Origin: Planctomycetota bacterium
Lineage (GTDB): Bacteria; Planctomycetota; Planctomycetia; Gemmatales; Gemmataceae
Length of the DNA: 35,909 bases
Reading direction: 5' to 3'
Assembly (NCBI GenBank): GCA_029777335.1
Contig: JAKOSN010000207.1
Location: 1 to 35,909, forward strand
In this document: piece after piece, positions 8,817 to 24,357 of the stretch
Layout: every line of letters begins with the position of its first letter
How positions within the stretch are numbered: the first letter of the stretch is position 1
Made by a program: the position numbers and the translations under genes
Notes under the pieces: model-generated
Databases searched by the model: none
The model's input: only the letters and a program-made list of their open reading frames with translations
Told to the model about the DNA's origin: nothing

Positions 8817-10415
8817 CTATTCTTCCTCAACCAGGATCTGCTGATCGGCCTTCACATTCCTGCGCGTGAGAGTCTTTCCTCCTGGCAGCCGCACCACGAC
8901 ATCGACCGCCTTTTCGTCGCCCAGGCCAAAATGGCAAAGGGCGGGCTGTCCGGCGGCGAAGCCGTAGCCGGTCGCGAGCTCCTGAAAGCCGAGTAATCCC
9001 TCCGCCCGCGCGCTTGTTCCCGCGCTATAGATCTTCACCTGGGCGCCTATTCCCATCCGATTCATCTTCTTGCCACGAACGGCGACCTTCAACCAGTGCC
9101 GTTTTGGACTGTCGTTGTGGAGCAAACGGCAGTGATTGCCCTGAAACCAGTTGACCAGAAAGAGATCCATGCGGCCGTCGTTGTCGTAGTCCGCCGAGGG
9201 ACCCGTGGGATAGTACACCATCGGCCCCTTGATCGGTTGGGGAGGAACGAAACGAGGCATACCGTCCTTGACTCCCAGATGCCGGTAGATCAGCGGGGTA
9301 ACCTTCCCCTTCGCGTCGAGCCAAGCCGCGGAGACGTAAATGTCCGGCCAGCCGTCGTTGTCGAAATCCTGGATCTCACAATGGGGACATTTCGTGGGAA
9401 CCGTCTCGCCCAGACCCACTTCCTGGGTGACATCGCGAAATTGGGGGATGCCGTCCTTCAACCCCTCGTTCAGAAACACCTTGTTGCGCGCTTTCTGGCC
9501 GTGAATCGACAGGACGAGATCGAGCCTGCCGTCGCGATTCAAATCGCCGAAGCACGCGCCGCAGGGCCAGTCTTCCCGGTCGAGCGGCTTCCAGGCGAAC
9601 ACACCCTGAGGAGCTTCACGATACTTGCCATCCTTCTGGCTGAGAAAGAGGCGATTACTGTGAGGGACAAAGAGATCGGGTCGGCCATCGTCATTGAGAT
9701 CGGCGCAGGCCAACCCCAGCCCATACAGATCCTCGGGGAGTCCGGCAGATCGGGTGACATCGACAAATTTCAACCCGCCCTGGTTGCGCAGCAATGCGCA
9801 GCGCGGCGCAGGTGTGAAGCGATCCTCGACAACAAAGAGGTCGAGGAGGCCGTCCTGATCGAAGTCGAGCACCCCCACATTGCGCGCCGTGAAGAGAGAC
9901 TCGGGGCAGGCGCCACTGGCGCGGGAAATATCGACGAGTTTCCCCTGGTCGTTACGAAAGAGCTGACAGTGGAGAGTCAGTTCGGGCTTCTTCGCCTTCG
10001 TTTTGGCGTTGTTGGCGACATAGAGTTCGAGGGTGCCGTTGTTGTCGAGATCGGCGAACACCGCTCCCGACGTGCGGCCCCGGGATTCGACGGCGGGGAG
10101 GGCGACGCGAGTAAAAGTCCCATCGCCCCGATTGCGGAAGAGACGATTGGTGATAGGCCCGGACGCGGGTTTGTACTCGGCATCGGGGCGGTCACAGAAG
10201 CCCCCCACATAGAGATCGACCAGACCATCGCCATCAAAATCGCCCCAGGCGGCGCCGTGGCCCATCAGCCCGGCCAGCGGTTCCAGCAACCCAGCCGTCT
10301 GGGTGGTTTCGGTGAACACGAGCCGGTCGTTCGACTCCGAGGGATCGCCAGGGGCGGCCAGCCATCCAGTGCCAAGGAGCAGGATGCTGCCGAGGAGCCA
10401 GCGGAACGTTGTCAT
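8817..10415 (-). CDS. CRTAC1-family protein with FG-GAP/VCBS-like repeats and ASPIC/UnbV domain, secreted
   Basis: - Signal peptide MTTFRWLLGSILLLGTGWLAAP
- Repeated Ca-binding-like motifs: DFDGDGLVDLYVGG, DLDNNGTLELYVAN, DFDQDGLLDLFVV, DLNDDGRPDLFV, DLNRDGRLDLVLS, DFDNDGWPDIYVS, DYDNDGRMDLFLVN
- C-terminal UnbV-like segment. Confidence 0.8.
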   Translation of the reverse strand: MTTFRWLLGSILLLGTGWLAAPGDPSESNDRLVFTETTQTAGLLEPLAGLMGHGAAWGDFDGDGLVDLYVGGFCDRPDAEYKPASGPITNRLFRNRGDGTFTRVALPAVESRGRTSGAVFADLDNNGTLELYVANNAKTKAKKPELTLHCQLFRNDQGKLVDISRASGACPESLFTARNVGVLDFDQDGLLDLFVVEDRFTPAPRCALLRNQGGLKFVDVTRSAGLPEDLYGLGLACADLNDDGRPDLFVPHSNRLFLSQKDGKYREAPQGVFAWKPLDREDWPCGACFGDLNRDGRLDLVLSIHGQKARNKVFLNEGLKDGIPQFRDVTQEVGLGETVPTKCPHCEIQDFDNDGWPDIYVSAAWLDAKGKVTPLIYRHLGVKDGMPRFVPPQPIKGPMVYYPTGPSADYDNDGRMDLFLVNWFQGNHCRLLHNDSPKRHWLKVAVRGKKMNRMGIGAQVKIYSAGTSARAEGLLGFQELATGYGFAAGQPALCHFGLGDEKAVDVVVRLPGGKTLTRRNVKADQQILVEEE

Positions 10416-10594
10416 GAGGGAGACTCCAGCGACCAGCGGGGAGGATCTCAGGCCCCGAGTGTCGCCCTGCGCGACAGGCGAGTAAAGGGTTTTTCTGAAA
10501 ATCGGTGCGGAACGGCGCTGGCTCGCCAGAAGTGCAAGGGACCGCTATCATAGAGACAGATTGTCTGGTCAGGCCCCGTGAAGCCGAGGTCCTC

Positions 10595-11059
10595 ATGCAA
10601 CCGACCGCTTCTGCCGCTGCTGAGCGTCCAGCCCGCATCCTGATTGCCGACGATAACCCTCAGGGCGTCGAGCTGCTGGAAGCGTATCTGAGCGGGACAG
10701 ACTACGAGCTGCAAACCGCCTTTGATGGAGAGGAAACGCTGGCGCGCGTGGCCGAGTGGCATCCCGATCTGATTCTGCTCGATGTCATGATGCCCAAGAT
10801 TAGCGGGTTTGAAGTGTGCAAACGGCTGCGCAGCGACCCCAGGACGAGCGACATCGCCATTCTCATGGTCACCGCGCTGGATCAGAACAGCGATATCGAT
10901 CGCGCCATCGATGTCGGGGCAGAGGATTTTTTGAGCAAACCGATCAACAAGGCGGAGTTACTGTTGCGCGTGCAATCGCTGCTGAAGAGTCGGCGTTACA
11001 CCCGGGAAATGGATCGGACCCTGGCGCACATTGAGGCAGTGGAGCGAGGCACTCCATGA
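10595..11059 (+). CDS. Single-domain response regulator (CheY-like receiver)
   Basis: REC motifs: ILIADDNPQGVELL...DLILLDVMMPKISGFEVCKRLR...ILMVTAL...SKP. Start chosen at ATG 10595 (MQPTAS...) rather than the track start at 10505. Stop overlaps the next start (ATGA at 11056-11059). Confidence 0.8.
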   Translation: MQPTASAAAERPARILIADDNPQGVELLEAYLSGTDYELQTAFDGEETLARVAEWHPDLILLDVMMPKISGFEVCKRLRSDPRTSDIAILMVTALDQNSDIDRAIDVGAEDFLSKPINKAELLLRVQSLLKSRRYTREMDRTLAHIEAVERGTP

Positions 11060-19508: not shown

Positions 19509-21629
19509 TCACTCCAGGGGAGCCACCTGAACGAGATTATCGAAGAACGTCGCCCCCCCGCCGAGGTCGGTAAGTCGACTGCTCGTGGTCATGTTGCAGT
19601 TCATGCCGTCGGCGGTGTAGCGGCTCCACCAGACGCCGAGGGTCGCCACCACCCCCGGCTGCACGGTCGGACCGACCACTGCCCGCGCCTGAAATCCGCC
19701 GCGTTCATTGAACACGCGCACCAGCTGACCGTGGTGAATCCCTCGTTGCAGAGCGTCGGCGGGATGTATCTCGACGATCGGCTCGCGCGCATCTTCACGC
19801 AACGAGGGAACGTTGACAAAGGTCGAGTTCAGAAACGACGGATGAGGCGGACTCACCATCTGCAGAGGATAGCGACGAGCCAGCTCGGGGTGCGTCTGCG
19901 GATCCTCGTGCGGGGGGACATAGGCGGGCAAGGGATCGAGTCCGCGCGCCTCCAGCGAGGGGCTGAATAACTCGCACTTGCCGGACGGCGTCGCAAAGTG
20001 GCCATGGGCGAAGGGCGTGTAGTCGAGCGGCAGATTCAGACGCAGCGGGCCTTCCTCCAGCAGACGCTCCCGCGTGATCCCCTCGAAAGCTTCCTGGTGC
20101 GGATAGCGTCCCGGCGCCTCAAGGGGGTCCAGGGCGAGGCGGATCAATTCCTCGTCGCTCACGTCGAACAATGCGCGTTCAAAACCCATGCGTTGGGCCA
20201 GCAGGCGGAACACCTCGGTATTGCATTTCGCCTCACCCAGCGGGGCGATCGCTGGTTGATTGATCTGCACATAGAGATGGCCATACGCGCCGTGAATGTC
20301 CCAGTGCTCCAGCTGCGTGGTCGCCGGCAGAACGATGTCGGCATACCTGGTTGTGTCGGTCGGGAATTGTTCGTGAACCACGGTGAACAGATCGGTGCGC
20401 GCCAGCCCTGCGCGAACGCGGTGCTGATTGGGACACACGGCCGCGGGGTTGGAGTTCCAGACATAAAGGGCACGCACAGGTGGACCGGCGAGTTCACCAT
20501 GGAGTGCCTCGCCCAGCTGAACCATGTTCACCGTGCGCGTTCCCGGCGGAACCAGATCCGGGCGCGTCAGGCGATCATCTCGCAGAAACGGGTTCTGGCC
20601 CGAGGTGCTCAGCAAGGCGCCGCCGCCCGGATAACGCCAGGCGCCGATGAGCGCGGGGAGGCAGGTGATGGTTCGCACCGCCATCCCCCCCCCGCCATGC
20701 CGTTGCAACCCATAGTTGAGGCGGATAAACGACGGCCCGCGGCGCTCCTCCCTCGAGGTGGCATAGAGCCGGGCGAGGTCCTCGATATCCTTGACCGGGA
20801 GAGTTGTGATCGCCGACACCTTCTCGGGGGAATAGTCGCGCTCCACCCGGTCGCGCAGCTCATCGCCTCCAAGACAAAAGCGATCCAGATAGTCCTGATC
20901 GTGCCATCCTTCACGCCAGATCACGTGCATCATCCCCAGGGCGAGGGCGGCATCGGTGCCGGGGCGGATGGGAAGCCACCAATCGCTGCGTGCGGCGGTG
21001 CGACTCCGGTGCGGATCGATGGTGATGATGCGTGCCCCTTCGCGGCGCGCCTTCACCATCAGAACCCACAGGTGGGAATTGGTGACGCTGGTATTCGAGC
21101 CCCAGTTGATAATGGTGCGCGCCTTGACCACCGTATCGGGATCGACAAAGGCGCGCGTTCCCAGGGTCACGAGACAGCCGGCGATTCCCGCAGTGGCACA
21201 GATGGTGCGGTCCAGCAACGAGGCACCCAGGCGATGGAAGAAGCGAAAGCCGAGGCTGCCGCCCTGAAGCTGGCCCATGGTGCCGGCATAGCTGTACGGC
21301 AGGATTGTCTGGGGGCCGTCGGGGGACTGGGCGAGCGCACCGAACGTGCGTGCAATCGTGTCGAGCGCCTCCTCCCAGGTGATCCGTTCAAAGCGCCCCT
21401 CGCCCTTGGCGCCAACGCGCTTCAGCGGCCATTGCAAACGCTCCGGGTGATAGACTCGTTCCAGGTAACGCGCCACTTTCTGGCAGAGGAATCCCCCGGT
21501 GAAGGAGTGGTCGGGATTGCCGCGCAGGTCCACGGCCCGACCCGCCTTGACGGTGACGACAAGGGAACAGGTATCGGGACAGTCGTGGGGGCAGACAGCG
21601 CGAACGAGGTGCGGGGCCTGAGTGATCAC
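19509..21629 (-). CDS. Molybdopterin (bis-MGD) oxidoreductase catalytic subunit with N-terminal 4Fe-4S domain (formate dehydrogenase / assimilatory nitrate reductase-like). Start revised to GTG 21629 (MITQAPHLV...). The track start 21650 would put the GGAGG SD inside the ORF.
   Basis: Cys cluster CPHDCPDTC...GGFLC near the N-terminus. Molybdopterin oxidoreductase signatures along the length. GAAAAGGAGGATCGATCG precedes the GTG at 21629 with 8-nt spacing. No in-frame TGA, so no Sec in this enzyme. Confidence 0.8.
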   Translation of the reverse strand: MITQAPHLVRAVCPHDCPDTCSLVVTVKAGRAVDLRGNPDHSFTGGFLCQKVARYLERVYHPERLQWPLKRVGAKGEGRFERITWEEALDTIARTFGALAQSPDGPQTILPYSYAGTMGQLQGGSLGFRFFHRLGASLLDRTICATAGIAGCLVTLGTRAFVDPDTVVKARTIINWGSNTSVTNSHLWVLMVKARREGARIITIDPHRSRTAARSDWWLPIRPGTDAALALGMMHVIWREGWHDQDYLDRFCLGGDELRDRVERDYSPEKVSAITTLPVKDIEDLARLYATSREERRGPSFIRLNYGLQRHGGGGMAVRTITCLPALIGAWRYPGGGALLSTSGQNPFLRDDRLTRPDLVPPGTRTVNMVQLGEALHGELAGPPVRALYVWNSNPAAVCPNQHRVRAGLARTDLFTVVHEQFPTDTTRYADIVLPATTQLEHWDIHGAYGHLYVQINQPAIAPLGEAKCNTEVFRLLAQRMGFERALFDVSDEELIRLALDPLEAPGRYPHQEAFEGITRERLLEEGPLRLNLPLDYTPFAHGHFATPSGKCELFSPSLEARGLDPLPAYVPPHEDPQTHPELARRYPLQMVSPPHPSFLNSTFVNVPSLREDAREPIVEIHPADALQRGIHHGQLVRVFNERGGFQARAVVGPTVQPGVVATLGVWWSRYTADGMNCNMTTSSRLTDLGGGATFFDNLVQVAPLE

Positions 21630-21831
21630 CGATCGATCCTCCTTTTCCACTGATTGTGGAAGGAGAAGAGGCGATTGTCAATCACTGCGGTGGCTTCCCC
21701 GCGGACCGGCCCTGGTTTCATCGCGGTGGCATCATAAAATGAGCGACGTGGACCGCCACACGGCCGGCCCGGCGCGCTCGCGTTGAGCTGTCGGCTGAAT
21801 GCTTCTCAAGATCCCGGAAAGCCGAGACCGT

Positions 21832-22287: not shown

Positions 22288-22530
22288 GCAACTTCCTGGG
22301 AGCGCGCCGTCGCCCGTGGGTGGCGGCTCTCCCTGGTCAATCCTTCTGTGAAGGTCGTCGAGGCGCGCGAGAGCCATCTCACGGTGATTTTCTGGTTGAA
22401 GGGGGATTGATTGGCAGGTGGATCTGGGAATGCCCGTGCGAGTGGGAGTGAGCACGAGGCTGGCGGCGGTCTTCCCCGTGCGATAACCGGCTTGGGGTGA
22501 ACCCCATCACGGCGCTGCAACACAATGAAT

Positions 22531-22579
22531 ACCCTCCCCCGCGAGCAGGAACTCCCGGCTCGCGGGGGAATGGGAGGGT
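22531..22579 (-). terminator. Long imperfect hairpin 14 nt downstream of the stop of the minus-strand gene at 22593. Inner stem: cccccgcgagc (22536-22546), 11-nt loop, gctcgcggggg (22558-22568). Outer stem: accct(ccc), 3-nt bulge, (ggg)agggt.
   Basis: Seen in sequence: about 19 bp pairing potential. In minus orientation it is followed by AUUCAUUGUGUU. Probable terminator or RNA-stability element for the 143-aa gene. Confidence 0.5.
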
Positions 22580-22592
22580 TGGGTTATGAGGC

Positions 22593-23021
22593 TCAGGCGA
22601 CTCCCACGTCCTTCTTGACGCGCGAATACCAGTTGGAGAAGAGGCCGGTCTTGACCTTGTAGCTGTTGTCGTCGATCACCTCGATGACCATACGCTTCAG
22701 CTGGACCTCGTTCTTCTTGCCCTGCGTGGCCTTCTTCGCCATGGCGACGCAATCGTTAAATTCCTTCTCGTCGATCTTGCCATCGTTGCTGGCAAAGGTT
22801 TCGATGAGATCCTTGATCTGCGAAAGAACCTTGCTTTCCAGGACGTAGCCGTTGCTCTCACACACCTGAGCGAGGGCGGAGCGGGCCGAATCGACGGTCA
22901 CGCCGGCCTGCAAGGCAATCTGGAGGATTTCACGTTCCTCGTTCTTGTCGATGTACTTGTCGTCGTAGGCACGCAACTTGACCTGTTCGACAAACTGCCG
23001 TTTCACTTCATCCAGCGTCAT
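22593..23021 (-). CDS. Hypothetical cytoplasmic protein (143 aa, Lys/Glu-rich, no signal peptide). Function unknown.
   Basis: Start placed at ATG 23021 (MTLDEVKRQF...) because AGGAG lies 8 nt upstream. The track GTG at 23030 would abut the SD. Codon usage is lower in GC than the neighbouring genes. Confidence 0.65.
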   Translation of the reverse strand: MTLDEVKRQFVEQVKLRAYDDKYIDKNEEREILQIALQAGVTVDSARSALAQVCESNGYVLESKVLSQIKDLIETFASNDGKIDEKEFNDCVAMAKKATQGKKNEVQLKRMVIEVIDDNSYKVKTGLFSNWYSRVKKDVGVA

Positions 23022-23047
23022 GGAAGCCACTCCTTACTTTGCAGAAG

Positions 23048-23067
23048 GTGAGAATCGCTTTTCTCAC
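23048..23067. promoter_or_regulatory. Inverted repeat GTGAGAA-N6-TTCTCAC in the 5' leader of the 143-aa gene
   Basis: Seen in sequence: gtgagaa tcgctt ttctcac, located 27-46 nt upstream of the ATG at 23021. Candidate operator or leader hairpin. Confidence 0.3.
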
Positions 23068-23240
23068 TTCACCTGAGCTGTTGTATTCTCTCCGAAACAG
23101 TCAGAGGACTGACAGTTGGTACACTGAGTAGTTCGTTAACCCACGCGGTTTATTTTGGAGAAACTCGCCTGATTATACCCGGCGGCAAGGTGTCATCAAC
23201 GATGGAGTTGGATCGCGCAAGGAATTCTCGGGGGAAGAAA

Positions 23241-23275
23241 AAAGCCAGCCAGGCAACGGCGCCTGGCTGGCTTTG
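23241..23275 (-). terminator. Rho-independent terminator for the minus-strand gene ending at 23318: gccagccaggc (23244-23254), loop aacggc, gcctggctggc (23261-23271). Preceded on plus by AAAAAA, which is a U6 tract on the minus strand.
   Basis: Seen in sequence: perfect 11-bp stem with adjacent A/T runs, most convincingly oriented for the minus strand. Confidence 0.75.
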
Positions 23276-23317
23276 GTGAGTGCAGGACCGAGAAGCGTCA
23301 ACAAGACAATCCCGAAA

Positions 23318-23878
23318 CTACTTGAGGATCTTGGAGAGATCCTTGACAATTGCCTCGACATCCGAGGACTTCATTTCGCCCTTACGGAAGGCATAGTTGG
23401 CCTTGATTGCCCGGTTGACGTAGAGAACGACAGTGACGTCGGCATCCTTGGCTACCTTGTGGCCCTTCGGGCCGGCGGGGTTATCCATCGCCAAGACGGT
23501 TTGCTTGAGGTTTTCCTTCTTGGCAAGTTCTTTCAGCTTCGGTTCGAGTTCGTCGGTATCCTTGGTGAGGAAGACGACAAAACTGCCCATCCGTTGCTTC
23601 TTGTTGGCCGCAGTGGCCTCATCGAGCTTCTTGACCAAACTGGTCAAGCCGGGGGTGACTTCGCGAGCGAAGACCATCGCCACCGGATTACCACCGTTCT
23701 TTCATACCAAGCACACTTTACCGCCCGCGTCGGGGCCGGTCACATGGAGTGGGTTGAAGGCAGGAACACCTTTGTCGCCCGGCTGTAAGCCGGACTTTAC
23801 GGGCTCCGCTGCGATCAGTGCGCCGCCGAGCAGCATCACCGTCATCAGCGTCGCCCCGGACAGGTAACGCGCATACAT
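23318..23878 (-). CDS. Candidate secreted selenoprotein. ATG at 23878, a 58-codon signal-peptide-bearing N-terminus ending ...GGKVCLV, an in-frame TGA at 23704-23702, then a 121-aa ORF (KNGGNPVAMVFAREV...KILK) in the same frame. Predicted CxxU motif (C-L-V-Sec). The alternative is a disrupted pseudogene or two separate genes.
   Basis: Seen in sequence:
- GGAGG lies 10 nt upstream of ATG 23878
- The N-terminus MYARYLSGATLMTVMLLGGALIAAEP is a typical Sec signal
- The frame is continuous through a single TGA
- Cys sits exactly 3 residues before the TGA
- The downstream segment can form hairpins, e.g. cuucg-cucg-cgaag about 35 nt after the UGA. Confidence 0.45.
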
Positions 23879-24057
23879 GTGCGATTAACCTCCAGGGTAG
23901 GATACGGTCCCGCAAGCACCATTAGTTTTCTTATCATCCCGCGAGACACCCGGCAAGAGGGCAAGGAACTGGACGATCGGTTTCTTCCCTGGCACTCGGT
24001 TTTCCCGGCTTCACGCCTCCTCTTTTCCTAGCCTGGATCTCCTCGCATAATGGAAGG

Positions 24058-24357
24058 ATGACCAGGAAAGCACGGGGTGAGCGAACCATTCGGCTCGAAC
24101 GCTCCCCGAAACTCGATGGGATCGGCATTTTCAGTGTGCGCGCCGGCACCACCCGTGCCTATTATGTGCTGCACGAAATCCCCTGCGCCATTGGCGGACG
24201 GGGGTTTGCTGTTCATCGACTCGGACTGGGGTCGCTCTACCATGTCCGCATCGGTCCGCCCGAAGATTGTTCTTGCGAATGTCTGGGATTTCTGGCCCAT
24301 GGGCGTTGCCGGCATATCCTCGGCTTGCTGGCCCTGGCACGACGCGACAAGATTTGA
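24058..24357 (+). CDS. Small protein with SWIM-type zinc-finger-like motif (CxCx10CxH). Weakly supported.
   Basis: 99-aa ORF. Motif DCSCECLGFLAHGRCRHI fits the SWIM consensus CxCxnCxH. The start context is poor (GGAAGG abuts the ATG). Lies between the divergent selenoprotein-candidate promoter and the ECF sigma gene. Confidence 0.3.
   Translation: MTRKARGERTIRLERSPKLDGIGIFSVRAGTTRAYYVLHEIPCAIGGRGFAVHRLGLGSLYHVRIGPPEDCSCECLGFLAHGRCRHILGLLALARRDKI

Follow-up and report, generated by a model that had tools for sequence, protein, structure and literature searches.

The window analysed here is a stretch of 35,909 nucleotides from a planctomycete of the Gemmataceae (contig JAKOSN010000207.1 of assembly GCA_029777335.1). 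On its minus strand, positions 23878..23318 very probably constitute one gene for a secreted, thioredoxin-fold selenoprotein, in which an in-frame UGA is decoded as selenocysteine (Sec) by means of a selenocysteine insertion sequence (SECIS) centred on a downstream RNA hairpin, here called hairpin 2. A secreted selenoprotein read through one in-frame UGA had been the original prediction, made from the sequence of the window alone, and it is now supported by Cys-containing homologs, by orthologs that share the TGA, by a hairpin coupled to the UGA and by linkage of selA to one member of the family (on contig L115). Four results carry this reading: Cys in homologs at the place of the TGA, the return of that TGA in many relatives, a hairpin conserved together with the UGA, and the predicted fold. 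The features of the gene are as follows.

23889..23893, minus strand: Shine-Dalgarno-like GGAGG with a 10-nt spacer before the ATG at 23878, read from the sequence
23318..23878, minus strand: complete putative selenoprotein coding sequence (CDS), 186 residues with U at position 59, then TAG, in a single frame
23807..23878, minus strand: predicted Sec-type (secretory) signal peptide, residues 1-24, from sequence features, with probable cleavage after L-I-A-A
23702..23713, minus strand: C-L-V-U redox motif, Cys56...Sec59, aligned with the invariant C-L-[YVF]-C of homologs
23702..23704, minus strand: in-frame UGA, the proposed selenocysteine codon, at a Cys column in homologs and recurring as TGA in relatives
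23241..23274, minus strand: intrinsic terminator from a terminator scan, a 15-bp stem with 9 G-C pairs followed by a T-tract

A single frame across the TGA

The original prediction had joined a 58-codon signal-peptide open reading frame (ORF) ending in GGKVCLV-TGA to a 121-aa ORF in the same frame, and this single-frame reading was confirmed. The first part comprises 58 codons (...GGKVCLV-TGA, with the TGA at 23704..23702, minus strand), and past the TGA the frame runs for 127 codons without a shift to a TAG (23320..23318, minus strand); the listed 121-aa ORF (23318..23683) is the tail of this fused frame. The proposed ATG at 23878 does have GGAGG 10 nt upstream (23893..23889), and the C-L-V-U spacing is as it had been described (23702..23713). 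The signal-peptide ORF begins MYARYLSGATLMTVMLLGGALIAA|EP..., with an Arg in the n-region, a hydrophobic core and an A-x-A-like site, features that point to export of the protein. Current annotation splits the gene into ORFs of 58 aa and 119/121 aa, and NCBI calls only the 119-aa tail (P0001). The terminator sits 44 nt past the TAG stop, so that the fused ORF forms a transcription unit of its own. The identical sequence, TGA included, was present on L003, from an independent Logan assembly of SRR15686344.

Homologs carry cysteine at the TGA column

Protein searches were conducted with the fused sequence in which U was replaced by C, a comparison that had been suggested with the original prediction. 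A large protein collection contained 1,054 homologs, and the best 120 of these are almost all 181-190 aa in length and cover both halves of the fused frame. In the alignment of the best 120 of 1,054, the TGA column is occupied by Cys in 116 of 120 sequences. It is the second of the two Cys in an almost invariant motif, C-L-[YVF]-C-x-N-G-x-N-P-V-A-M-[VI]-F-A-R, and the N-terminal consensus of the family reads M..R....LA.ALL.G...AAE..KSGPQ. Homologs that stopped at the TGA, or that were split there into independent genes, had been named beforehand as evidence against a selenoprotein; the homologs proved to be continuous proteins of ~185 aa. Such a Sec/Cys pair, with TGA in one gene where its aligned homologs have Cys, is the pattern classically expected of a selenoprotein. 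Since a TGC-to-TGA nonsense mutation would give the same pattern, further tests beyond the Sec/Cys pair were needed. Distant paralogs, 27-32% identical, in which C-L-[VI]-S replaces CxxC (L157 6092-6709, L189 601-1146 and L210 920-1465), adjoin Sec-form genes in Limnoglobus metagenome-assembled genomes (MAGs).

The TGA form recurs in Gemmataceae and its relatives

Two homologs that appear with 'W' at the Cys column have TGA in their DNA, having been translated under genetic code 4 at the Joint Genome Institute (JGI), and both have intact frames and the same C-L-V context as the window. These code-4 calls are L001 482-1030 and L002 229-834, the latter of which also overruns a real TGA stop and so acquires a spurious C-terminal tail. 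A degenerate DNA pattern with TGA at this codon, locally validated, which also required C-x-x-TGA, N-G, P-V and F-A-R-E, had matches in at least 120 metagenome contigs. Species-representative genomes contributed another 97 stretches, almost all from MAGs labelled Gemmataceae, Gemmatales, Fimbriiglobus, Limnoglobus, Gemmata or Planctomycetota. From 224 occurrences among the matches listed, 208 sequences were unique over 210 nt, and it is to this set that the counts out of 208 refer. Positions are given relative to the UGA, and those beyond +44 are free of any search-pattern constraint.

In all listed TGA forms the frame is open for at least 54 codons before the TGA and for 125-142 after it. Selection acts on both sides of the TGA, with ratios of nonsynonymous to synonymous polymorphism (pN/pS) of 0.49 upstream and 0.37-0.58 downstream. 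The real stop of these genes is TGA in 38 of 205 TGA-form genes, and UGA is therefore not reassigned in these organisms. The base right after the in-frame UGA is U in only 3 of 208 sequences, and where Ser occurs there its codon is AGY in 31 of 32 cases; the U favoured by release factor 2 (RF2) is avoided directly after the UGA. On these sequence comparisons, the placement of the TGA on the Cys column (116/120) and its recurrence in 208 unique sequences amount to far more than chance.

Several MAGs hold two or three TGA paralogs, some of them in tandem. Two TGA copies each were found on L023, L064 and L127, and divergent copies on L139 (~4713, CLV*DYGPKPV) and L093 (~1311, CLV*ANKDHPV; reverse-strand coordinates), while the MAGs JANLUE01, VGZI01, JBGQLF01, DASZFN01, DAIOGM01 and JAIEMG01 have two or three TGA forms on separate contigs. 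Cys paralogs stand beside Sec forms on L159 (2945-3430) and L160 (3938-4483). The family has expanded by tandem duplication, and the adjoining Cys paralogs have lost hairpin 2. Some carrier MAGs (those of L127, L137, L155, L162, L185, L196, L134, L208 and L219) are labelled Acidobacteriota, Alcaligenaceae, Bacteroidales, Nitrospirota or Ca. Kuenenia in place of Gemmataceae, labels that could reflect mis-binning, mislabelling or horizontal transfer.

A hairpin coupled to the UGA is conserved at synonymous sites

Downstream of the UGA, within the CDS, three structural features were distinguished.

23630..23648, minus strand: hairpin 2 (+56..+74), proposed SelB-binding SECIS core, CUUGACC-AGUUU-GGUCAAG, with a 7-bp stem and an R-G-U-Y-U loop, from conservation and pairing
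23650..23696, minus strand: intervening structured segment, in which the family-consensus hairpin 1 is +20..+54 (23684..23650) and the minimum free energy (MFE) fold of the window reaches +8
23663..23683, minus strand: alternative apex 1b, stem G21-A27/U34-C41, loop UGGUCU, window-specific and at canonical spacing, dG -7.4 kcal/mol

Column statistics over the 208 sequences showed that +56..+74 (C UUG ACC RGU YUG GUC AAG) is ~99% invariant. Four-fold degenerate sites are fixed within it (+62 is C in 207/208, +65 is T in 206/208 and +71 is C in 207/208), and other third positions are nearly random (at +38, for example, T 66, A 55, G 49 and C 38). The hairpin uses AGT and TTG, codons that are otherwise disfavoured; outside it, TTG accounts for 11% of the Leu codons of these genes. 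Across its eight codons, pS is 0.19 versus 0.49-0.63 in the flanking segments, about three-fold lower. The stem pairs 56-74 to 62-68, with complete pairing in 195 of 208 sequences, and the loop is AGUUU in 115, AGUCU in 59 and GGUCU in 31 of the 208. Rare variants preserve the stem, namely C61-G69 to U-A (L102), A60 to G (giving a G-U pair) and C62 to U.

Every TGA form has the peptide that hairpin 2 encodes, L-[TA]-[SG]-L-V-K, which was found in 0 of 116 Cys forms. Sec forms fold over the hairpin 2 stretch at -10.2 +/- 1.1 kcal/mol (-9.2 in the window), and five Cys-form DNAs, including two tandem paralogs of Sec forms, gave -0.3 to -4.0 kcal/mol. Of 187 unique Sec-form proteins listed, only two are without hairpin 2: L087, which is a chimeric contig, and L062, a single C-L-Y-TGA sequence that falls among the Cys forms in a neighbour-joining bipartition uniting the other 186 Sec forms. 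From its sequence and position, L062 is probably a genuine nonsense mutation or a sequencing error in a Cys-type paralog, a pattern that the window gene does not appear to share. The 3907 region of L062 is the same as L147 (contigs Ga0194132_10000913 / VGZI01000017.1), and L195, from the same MAG, carries a genuine Sec form. These comparisons show hairpin 2 to be constrained at the RNA level and coupled to the UGA. When the window and 1 Mb of sequence flanking the family's loci were searched for other in-frame-TGA genes with an RGUYU hairpin, only further members of the same family were found.

Averaged base-pair probabilities revealed a second element, hairpin 1, a long imperfect hairpin one nucleotide apart from hairpin 2. 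In a 127-sequence alignment the two-hairpin structure was 90.5% paired, as against 23-42% when the partners were slid by 1-3 columns, and compensatory changes were found in 9 pairs, mostly in the lower stem, a number reached by 0 of 500 shuffles. The pair +20/+54, for instance, is GC in 38, UA in 27 and CG in 10 sequences. The hairpin 1 region folds at -15.9 +/- 2.3 kcal/mol in Sec forms versus -8.9 to -11.9 kcal/mol in the five Cys forms.

The GC-rich, hairpin-forming sequence that the original prediction had noted after the UGA corresponds to real structure near this codon, but the SelB-like form of that structure is not conserved. The full stem of apex 1b forms in 7 of 208 relatives, because the third position of an Ala codon varies freely, and the loop is UGAUCU in most. 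Apex 1b was consequently rejected as a conserved SECIS and treated as a by-product of the A-M-V-F-A-R codons, while being retained as a rival. Likewise, folding of the 60 nt after the UGA had been suggested as a check; a SECIS-like hairpin does exist, but the conserved one is at +56..+74 and not within those 60 nt.

Comparison with known bacterial SECIS elements

The bacterial SECIS (bSECIS) model describes a 3-9 nt loop on a 4-16 bp upper stem with an MFE <= -7.5 kcal/mol, a G within the first two nucleotides of the loop (usually as N1-G-[G|U]-N-N2, N1 being able to pair with N2) and a UGA-to-loop spacing of 16-37 nt, and a subset of genes fails it (PMC13188914). A conserved loop G is found ~20 nt after the UGA (PMC4605307), and characterised bacterial SECIS loops all lie ~20 nt from the UGA (PMC4605307, PMC13188914). 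Hairpin 2, whose 7-bp stem closes a loop of 5 nt (or of 3 nt, should R63 and U67 pair), agrees with the model in stem, loop size and MFE, and its loop conforms to the G position and to N1-G-[G|U]-N-N2. Spacing is the one point of disagreement, the distance from the UGA being roughly three times that of the model. Within 16-37 nt of the UGA, the only structures are the apex of hairpin 1, which is not UGA-specific, and 1b, which is not conserved.

The element of Escherichia coli fdhF (UGA...GGUUGCA-GGUC-UGCACC, with its loop G at +22, confirmed in 5,419 genomes) resembles that of the window family in having the UGA at a position occupied by Cys in homologs, a downstream hairpin inside the CDS and an upper stem of 6-8 bp. 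The loops GGUCU in fdhF and R-G-U-Y-U in the window family are both small and contain G-U, with MFE < -7.5 kcal/mol. The two differ in the position of the loop G, +22 in fdhF versus +64 in the window family, where a covarying second hairpin of ~35 nt fills the interval.

A predicted thioredoxin-like fold with a displaced redox motif

A structural model was obtained with AlphaFold2 for a Cys homolog, P0007, which is 59% identical to the window protein, using a 117-sequence alignment (predicted local distance difference test (pLDDT) 91, predicted template modelling (pTM) score 0.84). After the signal peptide and N-terminal strands, the model has a helix at 54-58, a strand at 63-68, a helix at 73-88, a strand at 95-101 and a helix at 107-117, followed in its C-terminal part by a strand at 124-128, strands at 144-150 and 153-160 and a helix at 167-179. 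The best Foldseek matches were the secreted thiol-disulfide oxidoreductases 4nmu, ResA 1su9 (target-normalised TM 0.79) and DsbE 3gl3, together with Bcp peroxiredoxins; 4nmu, 1su9, 3gl3 and 3drn were matched at E ~1e-7, probability 1.00, target-normalised TM 0.73-0.79 and 14-18% identity. Sequence searches were empty: Pfam (including AhpC-TSA, Redoxin, Thioredoxin and Thioredoxin_8) gave no match for the fused protein or any of the 117 members, NCBIfam release 20.0 gave none for the fused protein, a PDB sequence search gave none, and hhalign against a ResA sequence gave a probability of 0.3, which is no similarity. The fold assignment therefore rests on predicted structure only.

In the model, the CxxC/CxxU motif occupies residues 53-56, at the N-terminus of the short helix before strand 63-68 and ~15 residues upstream of the canonical slot. 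The canonical CxxC slot itself (strand 63-68 / helix 73-88) reads R-E-[VT]-S-P by register. The residues before strand 144-150 are A-D by register, with no Pro, the equivalence to the cis-Pro position being approximate. The model thus presents a thioredoxin-like fold with a redox centre at a non-canonical position. The protein most likely functions as a periplasmic thiol/selenol-disulfide oxidoreductase, with Sec as the C-terminal member of the dyad. In likening the protein to thioredoxin-fold selenoproteins, the original prediction was right about the fold as seen by AlphaFold2 and Foldseek, but not about the families it named: the protein is not SelW/Rdx, Prx-like or DsbA-like, and its CxxU lies off the canonical site.

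Selenocysteine machinery in related genomes

The original prediction had stated that no selA, selB or selD gene is in the window, and none was found there, nor was a tRNA-Sec. The ~1 Mb of sequence flanking the family's loci contained no selB, selD or tRNA-Sec (ARAGORN being used for the tRNA). A tblastn match to 'SelB' on L175 was rejected, as it is EF-Tu. By contrast with the window, the soil contig L115 carries a TGA-form gene together with the 3' half of selA, ~0.9 kb away and convergent; this fragment includes the FSGDKLLGGPQAG motif and is recognised by PF03841 (E = 2e-54). Fragments of SelA with 63-80% identity to the L115 sequence are abundant, one being named as from a Gemmataceae MAG. 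A related 611-kb contig, L226, has a selB-selA operon. The SelB encoded there has hits to both the beta-barrel and the winged-helix domains of SelB, and full-length alignment with the E. coli protein gives 32% identity; L226 holds no member of the selenoprotein family. A full set of Sec-insertion genes has been reported for Gemmata obscuriglobus (PMC4807772).

Both selA sequences contain in-frame stops. In L226 selA (9272-10681, a nanopore-style contig) a TAA stands exactly at the conserved Tyr of HTSNY, and in the L115 fragment a TAG (2467-2469) is present near the 3' end with conserved sequence beyond it. These are single-contig features, which could be assembly errors or real lesions. A conserved in-frame stop behind half-length SelA matches was considered and rejected, most of these matches being artefacts of contig edges (P0135, for example, begins 28 nt from one).

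Proposed mechanism and competing explanations

We propose that the gene is monocistronic and would give rise to a mature secreted protein of ~160 aa with a TlpA/ResA-like thioredoxin fold. The UGA at 23704..23702 would be decoded as Sec, and the resulting C-L-V-U redox centre would stand where the short helix begins, immediately ahead of the first core beta-strand. The SECIS would lie inside the CDS, and its conserved SelB-binding module would be hairpin 2, while hairpin 1 (+20..+54) probably folds the intervening stretch away. The base of hairpin 2 would then be effectively ~18-20 nt, and its loop ~25 nt-equivalents, from the UGA, a shortened distance that would place hairpin 2 within reach of SelB at the ribosomal mRNA entrance. 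We infer both the binding of SelB by hairpin 2 and the spacer role of hairpin 1.

Several points weigh against this reading. The hairpin 2 loop starts at +63, a spacing of 60 nt where the bSECIS model has 16-37 nt, and delivery by SelB from this distance is a proposal. The apex of hairpin 1 (loop +37..+40), at canonical spacing, could be the functional element instead. Covariation in hairpin 2 is thin (1-3 events), because the hairpin is almost invariant, and the Cys-form DNA controls number only five. Since the search pattern fixed C-x-x-TGA, N-G, P-V and F-A-R-E, conservation at these positions is built in and does not constitute independent evidence. Where CxxU stands with respect to the canonical site was read from secondary-structure register, not from coordinates. 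The evidence for Sec machinery comes from L115, L226 and Gemmata and not from the genome of the window itself. The support is computational throughout, and the carriers are all MAGs or metagenome contigs, with no cultured isolate among them.

The TGA could in principle mark a dead or mis-assembled gene in which a Cys codon (TGC/TGT) has become TGA. This would take a single substitution from TGC, and the family contains one apparent case (L062/L147), but the 208 unique TGA sequences have intact frames and purifying selection on both sides, the independent assembly has the same base, and the window gene shows all the features of its clade, including the C-L-V context, the exact hairpin 2 and L-T-S-L-V-K-K, making a pseudogene or sequencing error extremely improbable. 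We find it hardly credible that the locus comprises two genes independent of each other, one for a secreted peptide of 58 aa and one for a ~120-aa protein with its own start. NCBI and other pipelines annotate it in this way (P0001), and an ATG for a conserved Met lies 27 nt after the TGA; against this, homologs of ~185 aa run continuously across the junction, the Met is a conserved internal residue (A-M-[VI]-F) in Cys forms as well, and the downstream part has no signal peptide of its own. The predicted domain, moreover, needs both halves, with the N-terminal strands and the CxxC helix packing on the core at pLDDT 97-98.

Reading of the UGA as something other than Sec, whether as Trp or Cys by near-cognate decoding, by a suppressor tRNA or under a reassigned code, would be in keeping with the JGI translation of two members under code 4 and with Sec machinery being known from other contigs but not from the genome of the window. 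It is nonetheless very unlikely, given that UGA is a genuine stop in 38 of 205 of these same genes, that the recoded site is the redox Cys of a CxxC accompanied by a UGA-only hairpin with a SelB-type loop, and that selA is linked to one carrier (L115). An alternative that keeps the selenoprotein places the functional SECIS in a nearer structure, the hairpin 1 apex (+33..+44) or 1b (loop +28..+33), and leaves hairpin 2 with another UGA-linked role, such as ribosome pausing, blocking of RF2 or stabilisation of the mRNA. The hairpin 1 apex forms in 196 of 208 sequences at canonical spacing, and 1b in the window has a GGUCU loop like that of E. coli at a distance of 26 nt (dG -7.4), characterised bacterial loops all lying at ~20 nt (PMC4605307, PMC13188914). 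However, the codons that form the hairpin 1 apex are those of F-A-R-E, which Cys forms also have, and the C-N-C-G loop of this apex is without G-[G|U]; the full 1b stem is confined to the 7 sequences already mentioned; and hairpin 2 is the only element both specific to the UGA and fixed at synonymous sites. We therefore consider a nearer SECIS unlikely, and prefer a SECIS centred on hairpin 2.

The two hairpins may further represent a bacterial SECIS class of their own, with ~35 nt folded away by a spacer hairpin in front of a distal SelB-binding hairpin, serving an unrecognised family with CxxU off the canonical site and essentially restricted to Gemmataceae and planctomycete relatives; on present evidence we see this broader proposal as evenly balanced. 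If true, a bipartite SECIS of this kind breaks the 16-37 nt spacing rule that is built into predictors.

Relation to known selenoprotein families

The topology of the model corresponds one to one with ResA beta3-alpha1-beta4-alpha2-beta5-beta6-beta7-alpha4, plus the N-terminal beta-hairpin region, a likeness that extends to TlpA, CcmG(DsbE) and Bcp. TlpA/ResA/CcmG(DsbE) proteins and the window protein also share an N-terminal signal peptide. With respect to membership of the TlpA/ResA/DsbE group, the fold agrees, but there is no CxxC at the start of helix alpha1 and no match to a sequence profile; TlpA and ResA have W-C-x-x-C at the canonical slot, where the window family has R-E-[VT]-S-P. The catalogued thioredoxin-fold selenoproteins, which comprise thiol-disulfide isomerase-like (UxxC), TlpA (UGC), Redoxin (UxxC), Prx (TxxU) and DsbA-like families (PMC13188914, Table 1), are alike in that Sec replaces a redox Cys in the thioredoxin superfold. 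In those families Sec is at the canonical active site and Pfam/CDD/NCBIfam models exist, whereas the CxxU of the window family lies off that site and no model recognises the family. SelW/Rdx proteins share the C-x-x-U order, with Sec C-terminal and the motif at a helix start after a beta element, but the window protein is larger, secreted and has its motif outside the thioredoxin core; no Rdx domain was matched in Pfam at E <= 1, and the architecture also differs from SelW/Rdx.

No family listed in the 2026 catalogue of prokaryotic selenoproteins fits (PMC13188914), the comparison covering its listed families and not its CDD-only entries and supplementary lists. Neither BSepDB nor deep-Sep mentions Planctomycetes, and no description of the window family was found in the literature on selenoproteins in Gemmata, Gemmataceae and Planctomycetota. 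Taken together, these comparisons suggest a new selenoprotein family with an atypical, probably bipartite SECIS. The family is large, with at least 200 unique genes in soil and freshwater Gemmataceae and often several paralogs per genome, and databases hold its members as truncated 'hypothetical protein' fragments or code-4 mistranslations. SECIS-based predictors would miss a hairpin at 60 nt or pick the wrong hairpin, and the family offers a concrete, testable example of the 'distinct classes of bSECIS' merely alluded to in reviews. The Sec/Cys pair would mark a catalytic redox site away from its canonical place in the thioredoxin fold, and points to an uncharacterised periplasmic redox activity in Planctomycetota.

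Genomic surroundings

The gene lies in a segment of locally lower GC content, as had been noticed originally, with 0.51-0.57 over 22500-24250 versus 0.62-0.66 in the flanks. The window had no tRNA match and no Rfam match at the gathering threshold, and permissive thresholds gave only sub-threshold small RNA noise driven by the terminator. Clustering of gene neighbourhoods revealed no conserved operon partner and no sel gene, only synteny at the level of lineages. Directly downstream, a 145-aa protein (22593..23030, minus strand), which contains ...YIDKNEEREILQIALQAGV..., occupies the same position in 19 other loci, and ~21 other loci instead have in common an upstream MoxR-like AAA ATPase and a ~970-aa protein.

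An antisense ORF of 171 aa (23273..23788, plus strand) is a shadow ORF with an equivalent in 99 loci, which is explained by conservation of the sense frame. At 19509..21650 (minus strand) a Cys-type molybdopterin oxidoreductase of 713 aa is encoded, unrelated to selenium. Other genes of the contig, according to the L003 annotation upstream of 25523, include NDK, an ECF-type sigma-70 factor and a MacB-type ABC transporter, none of them selenium-related. The same annotation also places on the contig a polyketide synthase (PKS) module (CurL-like/acyltransferase/PS-DH), which is likewise not selenium-related.

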